In this document: one piece after another, positions 34,607 through 37,949 of the stretch
Position numbering within the stretch: position 1 is the stretch's first letter
How the letters are laid out: every line of letters starts with the position of its first letter
From: Clostridia bacterium
Lineage (GTDB): Bacteria > Bacillota > Clostridia > Oscillospirales > CAG-272
Reading direction: 5' to 3'
DNA length: 64,000 nucleotides
Assembly: GCA_017625935.1 (NCBI GenBank)
Contig: JAGALA010000034.1
Coordinates: 18,593-82,592 of the forward strand
Translations under genes and position numbers: made by a program
The notes under the pieces: model-generated
Database searches by the model: none
Seen by the model: only the letters and a program-made list of their open reading frames with translations
Told to the model about the DNA's origin: nothing

Positions 34607-35263
34607 TTTTTCAACAATTTCTGTGCTCGATTTATAGATAGAGTTTCCCATAACCGTACCGCGCACGCATGAAAGCGGGTAGATAATGGCGTTTGGAAAG
34701 ATGAGCGTGCCGGGGTTTAAAACCGAGCCGCAGCCGACCTCGGCGTGTCCACCGACGACTGCGCCCATTTTGCGCAGCCCTGTGTCGATTTTTTCTCCGT
34801 TTATGCTTACCTTAACGCTTGATTTGTTGATTTTTAGATTTGAAATCACCGCGCCTGCGCCAAGGTGCGCGCCTTCGGAGAGAATCGAATTGCCGACATA
34901 ATTAAAATGCGGAACACACGCGCGGTCATATAGAATAGAATGCTTTATTTCACAACTGTTGCCAACCACCGCGCCGCGCCCAATTATCACCTCGCCGCGC
35001 AAATATGCTCCGTGGCGTAGCTCCGCGCCCTCGCAAATTACGGCTCTGCCCTCAATTTTGACACTGTTTGGAATGGTTATTCCGCGAAAAACGTACACTC
35101 CCTCGCCAATTTTTTCAAAATCGTCACCTAAATCATTAATTACACTTGATATGATATCGGGAATTTTTTCAATCGCCTGCCAAGGCAAGCGGTGCTTTAT
35201 TATCTCGCTGTGCGCAATTGATGCGTCGCTTCCTAAAATTCTTTCTGTTAAATTAATACTCAC
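34595..35263 (-). CDS. Left-handed beta-helix (hexapeptide-repeat) protein, GlmU C-terminal acetyltransferase-like
   Basis: Hexapeptide repeats are present (IGRGAVVGNSCEI, LGAGAVISN, VGGHAEVGCGSVL). The gene overlaps the glmM stop, which suggests an operon. Confidence 0.55.
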   Translation of the reverse strand: MSINLTERILGSDASIAHSEIIKHRLPWQAIEKIPDIISSVINDLGDDFEKIGEGVYVFRGITIPNSVKIEGRAVICEGAELRHGAYLRGEVIIGRGAVVGNSCEIKHSILYDRACVPHFNYVGNSILSEGAHLGAGAVISNLKINKSSVKVSINGEKIDTGLRKMGAVVGGHAEVGCGSVLNPGTLIFPNAIIYPLSCVRGTVMGNSIYKSSTEIVEKSFN

Positions 35264-36584
35264 TATCGCACTCCGAAATTAAATTTTGCAGCTCCGCGCA
35301 AATTTCACGACACAGGGTGGTGCTTTTTCCCTCTACAAGCACGCGAATTTTCGGTTCAGTTCCGCTTGCGCGCACCAAAATCCGTCCACTCCCCAGCACC
35401 TTTTCGTAATAATCAACCATTTCCCAAATGCGCGGATTTTCAATTGTTTTTTCTTTGTTTCCAACCAAAACCGCACCCTGTATCGACGGAAAGGTAGAAA
35501 AGCCGTCAAGCAAGGAGGCAATCTTACCGCCGTTTTTATGCGCCAGCTCACTTATCTTTATTGAGGTTAAAATTCCGTCACCCGTCCTTGCGTATTTACT
35601 TATAATTATGTGACCCGAGTCCTCGCCGCCCAAGGAGTATCCGCCGCGCTTCATTTCCTCGTAAACAAAACGGTCGCCGACCTGTGTTTTCTTTACCTCT
35701 ATCCCCTTTCCTTGAAATGATTCCCAAGTGCCTGAATTTGACATAACGGTTGTGACAACAGTATTCTTGTTCAGCGCTCCCTGCTCCTTTAGGTTGTTGC
35801 CCAAAACGTATAAAATTCCGTCACCGCTTACGACCATTCCCGTTCCGTCAACCGCTAAGCACCTGTCAGCATCTCCGTCGTATGCAAAGCCGATATCGAG
35901 CTTGCTTTCCTTGACAAAGCGCACAAGCGTGTCGATATTTGTCGAGCCGCATCCGTCATTTATATTTACGCCGTTTGGTTTGTCTGCGATAGTATAAACA
36001 CTCGCGCCCAAGCGTTCAAAAGCCTCACGCGCAACCAAGCACGCGCTGCCGTTGGCAGTGTCAAGCCCCACCCTTAGTCCGTTTAGCTCACGCTCATTAC
36101 AGGCAACAAGATAATCGACGTATTTTTTTGCGCCCTCACTAAATTCAACTGCTTTTCCGATGCTTTTTGCCTTTTTGGTCGGGGACGTGTCTGTTTTTGC
36201 GTCCAAAAACTGCTCTATTTTGTCTGTTTCCTCATCACTCAGCTTCTCGCCTGTATGGCTTAAAATCTTAATTCCGTTGTCGTAATACGGATTATGGCTT
36301 GCCGAAATCATAACGCCATAGTTAAAGTCGCACGTGTACGTTAGGTATGAGGCACACGGTGTTGTGTTTACACCCAAAAGATATACGTCAGCACCCATGC
36401 TCGTCGCGCCTGCGCTCAGTGCACATTCAAGCATACCTGACGAGAGGCGTGTGTCCTTGACAACGAGAATTTTTCCACCGCTTGACTCTTTGCCTAAATA
36501 TTTTCCTATCTTAAAGGCATGCTCTGCACAAAGCTGTTCCCCTGCTTTTCCGCGAAAGCCGTCTGTCCCAAAATATTTTCCCAT
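35253..36584 (-). CDS. glmM: Phosphoglucosamine mutase
   Basis: The N-terminus is YFGTDGFRG and the active-site loop is SASHNPYYDNGIK. The start was chosen at MGKYFGTDG (ATG at 36584) after a GGAGG RBS. Confidence 0.93.
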   Translation of the reverse strand: MGKYFGTDGFRGKAGEQLCAEHAFKIGKYLGKESSGGKILVVKDTRLSSGMLECALSAGATSMGADVYLLGVNTTPCASYLTYTCDFNYGVMISASHNPYYDNGIKILSHTGEKLSDEETDKIEQFLDAKTDTSPTKKAKSIGKAVEFSEGAKKYVDYLVACNERELNGLRVGLDTANGSACLVAREAFERLGASVYTIADKPNGVNINDGCGSTNIDTLVRFVKESKLDIGFAYDGDADRCLAVDGTGMVVSGDGILYVLGNNLKEQGALNKNTVVTTVMSNSGTWESFQGKGIEVKKTQVGDRFVYEEMKRGGYSLGGEDSGHIIISKYARTGDGILTSIKISELAHKNGGKIASLLDGFSTFPSIQGAVLVGNKEKTIENPRIWEMVDYYEKVLGSGRILVRASGTEPKIRVLVEGKSTTLCREICAELQNLISECDSEY

Positions 36585-36679
36585 ATAATCCTCCAAAATT
36601 TTGCAAATTACGAGAAAAACTACATTATTTATTATATGTATGTTATTTTGGTTTGCTATTTTCTAAAATAAAAATTGGC

Positions 36680-36699
36680 TGACACATTAAGGCACAACC
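36680..36699. repeat. 20-bp repeat (tgacacattaaggcacaacc), inverted copy of 2039-2058
   Basis: It is an exact 20/20 reverse-complement match to ggttgtgccttaatgtgtca at 2039-2058. Confidence 0.85.
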
Positions 36700-36820
36700 T
36701 TAAACGAGAACCCCAAACCTCATACTTCGGTTCGGGAAACCCCTACACAAACAGAAAGAGAGAACAAATCGGTTTTATAGCCGAACTGTTCTCTCTTTTT
36801 CTGTTCGTTTTAAGTTTAGA

Positions 36821-37006
36821 GTTATGAAGCTCGCTTTGCTTGCCGTTATGAGCTTGCACAGCAAGCGTTATGATATGATTGCCTTGCTAACCTGTAACTT
36901 GGCGTAGCCAATCATAACAATGCGTAAGCATTTCATAACTCATAACTTGCCCGTAAGGGCAATCATAGTTTAGCGTGATACTCCGTTAAGAGTATCACGC
37001 TAAACG
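36821..37006. repeat. Mini-hairpin array D (GTTATGA units on the left, inverted TCATAAC units on the right)
   Basis: GTTATGA starts at 36821, 36845 and 36867. TCATAAC starts at 36912, 36933 and 36940. Hairpins are gcttgcacagcaagc, aatgcgtaagcatt, ttgcccgtaagggcaa and a 13-bp stem at 36971-37002. Confidence 0.8.
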
Positions 37007-37016
37007 TGGGAAATTT

Positions 37017-37949
37017 TTATTGGTTTTTGTTTTGACTAATTTTCTCTTCCTCTTTTTTCTTTGCTTCCTCAAGCTCGCGCTTTTTGTTTGCGCGTGCGGC
37101 GGCGTCGGAAATTGAGCGGCGGCGCCTCTGCTCTCTCACCTTGGAAAGATATTCAAATGCGTAATACGGCTTGATGCCTGCGGGCAACGGGTCGTACTCT
37201 GCTTCCTCCGGGTAAAGCTTAAAGATCCTTCTCATATGCTTGTCGTAAAATCTAAGGTACTGCCACGAGCGGTATTCCGCCATAATGATGCAAGCAACAA
37301 CGCCAAAGGCTATAAGCGATATGCCGAGAAACGGATTTATCGCAATGCCTGCTATGCCAAAAAGGGCAAGCGAGGCAAAAAGGAACATCACAATTTGAGA
37401 GTTGCGCTTGATTGTGAAAATCTCCTCCTCAAAGCGCGAAATATATTTTTTTACGGTAACCACGCGTCCCTTTGTATCGTCGAAAATAGTCAGGTCGGGG
37501 TTTTTGCAAATCTTGCGCTGTAAAAGCGTATAGTCATACATTGTGTTTCTTTGCGGTGTGTATTTGCCGTATTCAACAATCTCCGCGCCGTAGGGTCCCT
37601 TCAGGTATGCGTAAATACGGTCAATCTGAAGTGCCAACGGAACGCCGATAACGGTGATTCTTAAAATAAACGCAAGGAGTGAATAACAAAATCTCGCGCC
37701 GTAGCCGCCGAAAAGACACCAAATCACGTTTAATACCCTGCGCTTCGGTGTGGGTCTGTACACAACCGTTTTGCCGCTTGGCATAAATATAATAGGAATA
37801 AACTTAAAATGCTTTATTCCAAACGGAATGCCGATAATTGAAAGGCAGCAAAGCGTGCCTATAACCGCGCTTATTATGCTTGCCCAAATACCGACAAGCA
37901 AAACCCAAGCAATGAAAAAGCCCTTGGAGCTTGTGTTTTTAATCATCAA
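37017..37949 (-). CDS. YccF-domain (DUF307) membrane protein with a charged C-terminal tail
   Basis: Two YccF-like motifs are present (IGIPFGIKHFKF and VIGVPLALQ) along with multiple TM helices. The RBS is aaggagg. Confidence 0.6.
   Translation of the reverse strand: MMIKNTSSKGFFIAWVLLVGIWASIISAVIGTLCCLSIIGIPFGIKHFKFIPIIFMPSGKTVVYRPTPKRRVLNVIWCLFGGYGARFCYSLLAFILRITVIGVPLALQIDRIYAYLKGPYGAEIVEYGKYTPQRNTMYDYTLLQRKICKNPDLTIFDDTKGRVVTVKKYISRFEEEIFTIKRNSQIVMFLFASLALFGIAGIAINPFLGISLIAFGVVACIIMAEYRSWQYLRFYDKHMRRIFKLYPEEAEYDPLPAGIKPYYAFEYLSKVREQRRRRSISDAAARANKKRELEEAKKKEEEKISQNKNQ

Follow-up and report, generated by a model that had tools for sequence, protein, structure and literature searches.

REP elements keep their stems and GTAG head constant and have variable linkers, and the modules of BOX elements are conserved in sequence. 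Hairpins also serve as landing sites of mobile elements, since REP hairpins receive IS1397 and ISKpn1 in their loops and terminator hairpins have class C group II introns inserted beside them. The intervening sequences found in the 23S rRNA of Leptospira and Coxiella encode proteins of the PF05635 family. We know of no word-and-hairpin arrays in these intervening sequences, and outside the diversity-generating retroelements the PF05635 "intervening-sequence" proteins are, to our knowledge, unexplained. The same applies to Gut-1 (RF01706), which has been in Rfam since 2010 and has, as far as we know, no function, no organism and one descriptive sentence. As published, the Gut-1 motif is a single array of hairpins, 77 nt long, which is filed as an sRNA and for which human-gut sequences were the only source (Weinberg et al., 2010, PMC2864571); a search of the literature on Gut-1 returned nothing beyond that paper.

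The window analyzed here is a stretch of 64,000 nt from a contig of a Clostridia bacterium assembly (JAGALA010000034.1 in GCA_017625935.1). At 36821-37006, in a 420-nt spacer between two minus-strand genes, it carries an array in which the heptamer GTTATGA, repeated between small hairpins, is followed by its reverse complement TCATAAC, also repeated between hairpins, so that two half-arrays face each other as mirror images (Table 1). Based on the evidence presented below, this array is best regarded, with a probability of roughly 0.6, as a solo (gene-less) copy of a mobile, non-coding mirror-array repeat of the Gut-1 type that resides in uncultured gut Clostridia. The three GTTATGA words, the three TCATAAC words and the degenerate TCATAG that an initial annotation of this DNA had reported are all in place, as are the small hairpins with unrelated stems and the 13-bp perfect stem; the latter, which forms H6 (36971-36983 with 36990-37002), can be extended to 16 bp (36968-36983 with 36990-37005). 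Together the two words occur 16 times in the window versus 8.1 expected, six of them within 126 bp, and the folding energy of the array departs from that of dinucleotide shuffles with z = -8.5 for the plus strand and -9.6 for the minus strand.

Table 1. Features of the spacer between the glmM-like and YccF-domain genes, in window positions.
Feature	Position	Strand	Remarks
Phosphoglucosamine-mutase-like (glmM) gene	35253-36596	-	
A-tract AATAAAAATT left of the insert	36668-36677	.	perfectly complementary to 37011-37020
Composite insert, ~333 nt	36678-37010	.	two relatives have no such insert in the orthologous yccF-like/glmM spacer
REP-like 40-nt repeat, GTAGGGGTTTCCCGAACCGAAGTATGAGGTTTGGGGTTCTCG	36705-36746	-	GTAG-headed; separate optional module
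Element-borne terminator-like hairpin (AGAAAGAGAGAACAAATCGG..CCGAACTGTTCTCTCTTTTTCT)	36747-36808	.	inverted repeats I1, I3; U-rich tails on both strands
Array unit proper	36803-37005	+	TTCGTTTTAAGTTTAGAG, mirror array, terminal hairpin; minimal insertion unit
Left half-array	36821-36873	+	GTTATGA, H1, GTTATGA, H2, GTTATGA
GTTATGA words	starts 36821, 36845, 36867	+	direct reading
Hairpin H1	36828-36844	+	
Hairpin H2 gcttgc-aca-gcaagc	36852-36866	+	covaries between copies
Array center	36874-36898	+	TATGATTGCC, then variable spacer
Right half-array	36899-36968	+	H3, TCATAAC, H4, TCATAAC, TCATAAC, H5, TCATAG
Hairpin H3 ttggc-gta-gccaa	36899-36911	+	covaries between copies
TCATAAC words (reverse complement of GTTATGA)	starts 36912, 36933, 36940	+	direct reading
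Hairpin H4 aatgc-gtaa-gcatt	36919-36932	+	covaries between copies
Hairpin H5 ttgccc-gtaa-gggcaa	36947-36962	+	covaries between copies
Degenerate TCATAG word	36963-36968	+	direct reading
Terminal hairpin H6 (GTT TAGCGTGATACTC cgttaa GAGTATCACGCTA AAC)	36968-37005	+	inverted repeat I2
T-tract AATTTTTATT	37011-37020	.	overlaps the YccF-domain gene stop codon (37017-37019, minus)
YccF-domain membrane protein gene	37017-37949	-	stop codon 37017-37019

The unit, of ~195 nt, is present in 8-9 copies (nine forward matches) in the 2.08-Mb genome to which the window belongs, on contigs C40, C60, C32, C31, C49, C4, C52 and C10, at identities of 77-89%; the copy on C10 is a variant with a different word. 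The window copy scores 219.9 bits with covariance model R1. Of 61 related genomes, 38 gave matches to a covariance model built from eight copies of the unit; a single genome has as many as 29, many matches lie at contig ends, and the matching genomes comprise nearly the whole genus as well as five other families of the order. A further 64 copies were collected from metagenome-assembled genomes (MAGs) of Clostridia, Eubacteriales and Oscillospiraceae. The exact central 17-mer was detected in MAGs labelled Clostridia, Eubacteriales, Oscillospiraceae, Acutalibacteraceae and Ruminococcus, with sheep, deer, goat and cattle guts among the sources; its matches in unrelated phyla are attributed to chance, because by our own arithmetic ~70 chance hits are expected in the collection. 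The plasmid and phage collections searched for the array unit gave no match. Within each of three relatives (G009, G012 and G004) the copies are 97-98.5% identical. Those of the genome studied here are at most 88% identical to one another, and some are closer to copies of other species.

A blind census of this genome for at least three identical heptamers spaced 7-34 nt apart returned 159 clusters versus 10 in the shuffled control. Inverted half-arrays, the frequency of which the initial annotation had suggested checking, recur in the genome (~11 mirror loci versus none in the shuffled control), and the common family it had proposed with its array A is supported in that this array and the other mini-hairpin arrays of the genome belong to one superfamily with a common grammar of private hairpins and a constant word of 7-9 nt. 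It had also named the chance that the array is a local palindrome with no further GTTATGA/TCATAAC units elsewhere. Such units were found on the eight other contigs and in the 38 relatives, and the array therefore survives this test. Nothing but the small size of the word speaks for a chance palindrome, which is vanishingly improbable in view of the excess of words, the folding z-scores and the covariation described below, and is refuted by the copies elsewhere.

The consensus of the unit reads TAGTTTAGA, GTTATGA, H1, GTTATGA, H2, GTTATGA, TATGATTGCC, spacer, H3, TCATAAC, H4, TCATAAC, TCATAAC, H5, TCATAG, TT, H6. Pairing was assessed in 63 distinct further copies, the alignment of which was fitted to the covariance model and with which an independent MAFFT/RNAalifold run agrees. 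In these, H2-H6 are paired at 96.8%, compared to 71.3% with shuffled partners and 36-43% with slid partners, and double-sided changes affect 32 of the 35 pairs, in 396 cells versus 86 expected. The stem of H2, for example, occurs as gcttgc/gcaagc, atttgc/gcaaat and gcttga/tcaagc, and all 13 pairs of H6 have changed on both sides. The array is a dispersed repeat whose hairpins persist by compensatory change. The GTAA loops previously noted as GNRA-type do exist in the window copy but are private to it, GAA triloops closed by C-G being the commonest across copies. Nor did the proposed GTAG-containing core at the center turn out to be conserved, since GTAG is private to the window copy and the other copies have mostly GAA and also AAA, GGA, TAA or ACA at this place.

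The pairs amount to 1836 Watson-Crick, 43 G.T and 13 A.C in the further copies and to 1242, 18 and 7, respectively, in the first set. In both sets G.T exceeds A.C (43:13 and 18:7), and a small excess falls on the strand opposite the PF05635 gene discussed below; this excess is not decisive for the folded strand because wobbles make up only ~2% of the pairs and two positions of H6 alone supply 17 of the 43. At a longer range, the central TATGATTGCC, which consists of the last five bases of the word and a copy of the 5' arm of H5, is complementary at 10 of 10 positions to 36958-36967 (inverted repeat I11), and RNAalifold favors a helix between both segments; in the 63 copies this helix is 98.4% complementary and invariant, with no covariation. 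Word-to-word pairing likewise gives helices that are 90.9% and 98.4% complementary, with no covariation within the family and with shuffles performing equally well. Single deviations in the words are mostly uncompensated, one clean compensation being found in locus L038, and in solo copies words and stems decay alike.

Two further observations concern the folding of the unit. The central TATGATTGCC (36874-36883) repeats the 5' arm of H5 (36947-36952), and either of them pairs with the 3' arm of H5 plus TCATA (36957-36967); in the subfamily formed by L052-L056 (TCGCC/GGCGA) the TATGATTGCC segment and both H5 segments change jointly. It is possible that TATGATTGCC and the 5' arm of H5 constitute an alternative-pairing switch. 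In L036 (G001:C37) the loop of H6 is inverted (TTAACG for CGTTAA) and the stem is unchanged, which suggests a flip of the palindrome at the DNA level.

Sister arrays with the same grammar and other words were recovered as weaker matches of the model and carry GTGATGTT/AACATCA, AGTGATATT/AATATCACT, AGTGAAGTT/AACTTCACT and AGTTATATT/AATATAACT. The covariance-model matches thus comprise five words in total, the right word being always the reverse complement of the left one, and more than 10 further words were read beside PF05635 genes. Between families the central piece differs along with the word, and H6 is common to the arrays of four word families, as it also ends families 2-4. This concerted change between families agrees with pairing just as it does with inverted protein sites.

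In these bacteria a single genome can hold as many as 50 RF01706 matches above the cut-off of the model. Its matches overlap the sister arrays on both strands, with 51.7-90.4 bits (the Rfam gathering threshold being 50 bits), so that the mirror array amounts to two Gut-1-type half-arrays in inverted orientation. The consensus of the Rfam model has three free-stem hairpins linked by GUGAAAU. The array of the window shares with it three or more short covarying hairpins and a constant heptamer, but the heptamer is GUUAUGA, not GUGAAAU, and the Rfam search of the window copy gave no Gut-1 or other match at the gathering level, nor at E <= 10 over 36600-37020.

The yccF-like/glmM spacer measures ~400 nt here versus ~70 nt in two relatives (G072:C62 and G065:C23), where it holds solely a plain terminator composed of an A-tract, a hairpin and a T-tract. 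The A-tract to the left of the insert is presumed to be a remnant of the bidirectional terminator of the host. At its left junction the window copy has no clean terminator half. A base-precise empty site is available for a sister copy: in G065:C67 the terminator AAGCACCGA-TTGC-TCGGTGCTT and its T-run are intact, and on contig C60 of the genome studied here identical stem halves are separated by 194 nt that lie in the 4-nt loop, the insert being the entire homologue of the array unit. Presence and absence at orthologous sites are thus observed, with this sister copy lying exactly inside the 4-nt loop of a terminator. Split terminators were also detected from the flanks of single copies. Among the first 39 copies are 13 in which H6 is followed by 8-15 variable bases and a T-run that are perfectly complementary to an A-run and stem half located 150-235 nt upstream (19-39 nt in short forms); in a second set perfect complementarity of the flanks occurs in seven of 52 copies, and for 28 copies out of 84 the energy of the flank duplex has z <= -2, the partner lying 135-220 nt upstream. 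Roughly one copy in three has one half of a host terminator on either side.

Long forms of 323-413 nt bear three extra modules upstream of the array unit, namely a left module, an optional REP-like 40-mer and the element-borne terminator-like hairpin, all of which also occur apart. The hairpin is kept upstream of most copies, in two covarying stem types, and in the window copy it gives weak terminator-like matches only, both to Rfam and in the scan. The left module starts with sequence similar to the reverse complement of H6, a similarity that covaries in one subfamily; such possible terminal inverted repeats are confined to the long composites, and the short form at C60, which is a complete insert, has no left end. 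The duplication of the target site is irregular (3 nt at C60, 18 nt at C49, 0-3 nt elsewhere and none at several copies), and a fixed-length duplication was rejected since the lengths vary between copies. No empty site was found for the full composite at C10, as its left flank has no counterpart in the relatives.

The 40-mer occurs more than 30 times in the genome, with ~95% identity and sometimes in tandem (C25:71945-72052), and is present in some composite copies and missing from others. This GTAG-headed module inside the composite and the BIME-like location just 3' of genes would be expected of a REP/BIME-type element (the initial annotation had drawn the analogy with BIMEs) spread by a RAYT, but the module is optional, the hairpins of the array have no conserved GTAG head (the central GTAG being unique to the window copy) and their stems, in contrast to the conserved stems of REPs, are swapped for unrelated sequences between copies. 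Identity with REP/BIME elements is consequently very unlikely. What stands of the analogy is the switch of orientation, which is a regular feature of the family, as evidenced by the ~11 mirror loci and the arrays of 25 of 26 PF05635 genes.

The copies have unrelated neighbor genes and no linked transposase, reverse transcriptase or recombinase, and a scan of the genome for H6-like ends revealed no transposase bounded by the ends of the element that could represent an autonomous partner. The H6-like ends at C5, C2, C41 and C20 adjoin unrelated genes, those at C5 and C2 with a 77-nt repeat only. At C41:21501-21790 and C20:1-160 the H6-like hairpin GTTGTGTTCTTAACGGAG is lodged in a split terminator and both loci are cut by contig ends; judged from its sequence, the gene 3' end beside this hairpin looks like the tail of a large serine recombinase.

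The array family is linked to genes of the PF05635/TIGR02436 family. Between one and seven PF05635 genes are present in each of 44 of the 61 relatives, and a mirror word array lies no more than ~350 nt from 25 of the 26 genes examined with their flanks, every one of these arrays using a word of its own. Conversely, nine of 100 GTTATGA-array loci have a PF05635 gene or an internally deleted remnant at a distance of 9-72 nt. In the GTTATGA cassettes that were read, the gene lies directly behind guaA, and the leader runs in gene sense as CTATGA, TTGCC-hairpin, GTTATGA GTTATGA, hairpin, GTTATGA, hairpin, spacer and GGCAATCATA, followed by the TCATAAC half (TCATAAC, hairpin, TCATAAC, TCTAAAC). The solo array on the minus strand is collinear with this leader of the relatives; hence the solo unit corresponds to the leader without the open reading frame, and the insert at 36678-37010 contains no PF05635 open reading frame. 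In the window the gene-sense strand is the minus strand, as for both neighbor genes, and a minus-strand transcript through the array would be ended by the hairpin at 36808-36747. The guaA gene of this genome (C7:41652 onward) is joined directly to sequence that in the relative L149 lies past the cassette, which constitutes an empty cassette site, and the genome therefore lacks a GTTATGA cassette.

The cassette protein belongs to TIGR02436/PF05635, with PDB 2RLD as its nearest solved relative (E = 3e-26), and its sequence follows the word: compared with one GTTATGA-cassette protein, those of other GTTATGA cassettes are 71-82% identical, those of AGTGATATT/AGTTATATT cassettes 62-64%, and the rest at most 56%. 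The genomes G009 and G012 contain both a GTTATGA-type gene and near-identical array copies, but G004 has near-identical copies and no GTTATGA-type protein in its 90%-complete assembly, so that a dependence of the array copies on the cognate protein finds partial support.

The cassettes themselves are diverse. In the genome studied here, C60:8490-9117 comprises a tRNA gene, a terminator, an AATGAAG/CTTCATT mirror array and a PF05635 gene, a near-identical copy of which is cut off by the start of contig C27. At C25:67740-68470 the PF05635 gene is located inside the mirror, between the CATGAATTG and CAATTCATG half-arrays, and the downstream half-array, CAATT(C/T)ATG, includes CAATTTATGA, the variant of the "array A" described in the initial annotation. 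In two relatives, L101 (G030:C23) and L110 (G015:C10), the gene is flanked by plain tandem words (AATGCAGA/TCTGCATT and TTTTCACT, respectively) with no hairpins between them. Behind guaA, the loci L154, L172 and L187 retain only PF05635 pieces of 22-33 residues beside their GTTATGA arrays, the L154 remnant being read as an internal deletion; the gene at G004:C7 has an in-frame TAA and L117 an apparent frameshift in a G-run. These cassettes appear to decay.

The filing of Gut-1 as an sRNA raises the possibility that the array serves the cell as a structured RNA, free-standing or cis-acting, being either a paralogous RNA gene or a regulator in a 3' or 5' UTR. The array of complete GTTATGA cassettes reaches up to the ribosome-binding site and must therefore be part of the mRNA leader, the element-borne terminator lies past the array on the leader strand, where H1 reads GGUGAGC-GAAA-GCGAGCC, with a GNRA loop and tandem G.A, and all six hairpins show strong compensatory change. 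Against this, the copies lie in either direction relative to tandem host genes (9 versus 6), no promoter-like site was found upstream of the unit, wobbles are scarce and slightly favor the strand opposite the gene, words and stems decay similarly in solo copies, and the presence/absence at orthologous sites together with the near-identical bursts is transposon-like. A cellular RNA of this sort is considered unlikely.

The words might instead be oriented sites in double-stranded DNA for a sequence-specific protein, the four-helix-bundle protein or another, in the manner of iterons or transposon ends, the mirror corresponding to two inverted arms and the hairpins being secondary. The words are identical throughout one array, beyond what pairing alone demands, from family to family the left and right words change together, and their pairing shows no covariation; in addition, some cassettes have hairpin-free word repeats on both sides of the gene (G030:C23 and G015:C10) and the gene at C25 sits between two half-arrays. 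Sites of this kind, on the other hand, leave unexplained the hairpin spacers that have been kept through 396 double changes, and the words are unphased, with a variable spacing of 7 or 21-26 nt, for which reasons this explanation is regarded as quite improbable.

A mobile Gut-1-type repeat, the reading preferred here, can be outlined as follows. The solo copies would descend from PF05635 cassettes whose open reading frame was lost or never carried. In a single strand, be it a transcript or single-stranded DNA, the private hairpins would fold and the constant words would end up side by side, where the left and right words may pair or one word-specific factor may bind both of them. The best candidate for this factor would be the four-helix-bundle protein of the cassette, since the divergence of its sequence parallels that of the word. 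The insert would thereby collapse to a compact branched stem and the halves of the host terminator could still meet, which would make terminator loops a safe landing site. Since the genome lacks the cognate cassette and its copies date from long ago (no more than 88% alike), the window copy is most likely inert, a relic whose sole effect would be a longer 3' UTR and terminator for the yccF-like gene. In a broader and tentative proposal, which we hold to be doubtful, Gut-1-type arrays and stand-alone PF05635 genes would represent one unrecognized kind of selfish cassette that targets hairpin loops (terminators, tRNA and guaA sites and, in other phyla, 23S rRNA helices), the protein reading the word of the cassette between sequence-free hairpins and the gene-less arrays being non-autonomous passengers.

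The locus and its relatives allow Gut-1 and the PF05635 proteins to be framed jointly, the motif being one half of a mirror array that is mobile, lands in terminator loops and varies its words jointly on the two arms; in its complete form the array is the leader of a four-helix-bundle gene, the sequence of which tracks the word. If the protein does read the word, this would be a new module of protein/nucleic-acid recognition and possibly a new mobility mechanism. At a practical level, the repeats break assemblies of gut Clostridia and can be mistaken for small-RNA genes or for CRISPR-like or REP arrays.

Compared with known systems, the array family shares with MITEs a presence/absence polymorphism with precise boundaries, and differs from them in lacking a fixed-length target-site duplication and, as far as the scan of this genome shows, a transposase-encoding partner with the same ends. 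The BOX elements of Streptococcus pneumoniae, modular MITE-like repeats, are likewise non-coding, intergenic and presumed to be mobilized in trans, with a variable number of units and strong predicted folding, but they have neither the grammar of words and private hairpins nor mirror halves nor a link to a four-helix-bundle gene. IS1397/ISKpn1 and the class C group II introns resemble the array in that the target is a hairpin and not a sequence; they encode their own enzymes, whereas the array encodes nothing and contains none of their sequence or RNA signatures (no Rfam match). The cassette protein falls in the same PF05635/TIGR02436 family as Avd of the diversity-generating retroelements and the protein of PDB 2RLD, although no reverse transcriptase, template repeat or variable repeat lies beside the cassettes examined. 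A further parallel is offered by the 23S rRNA intervening sequences, which are lodged in a hairpin loop, have complementary ends and a sporadic distribution and are linked to a PF05635 gene, as are the complete array cassettes; in place of rRNA helices, however, the arrays occupy terminators of protein-coding genes and positions behind tRNA genes or guaA, and the window copy is gene-less. With the REP/BIME elements of enterobacteria and Pseudomonas the arrays have in common that they are short intergenic hairpin repeats located just 3' of genes, with alternating orientation of the units, short linker motifs and one chromosomal "master" gene locus accompanied by many dispersed copies; in the arrays it is the linkers that are conserved and the stems that are free, with no GTAG head, and the analogy fits the niche and not the membership. 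With Gut-1 the arrays share at least three small free-stem hairpins with UUC/UUCG-type loops on that strand, a constant heptamer linker and uncultured gut Clostridia as hosts; the published motif is a single half-array, whereas here two half-arrays form an inverted pair within a mobile unit of ~195 nt that ends in a terminal hairpin.
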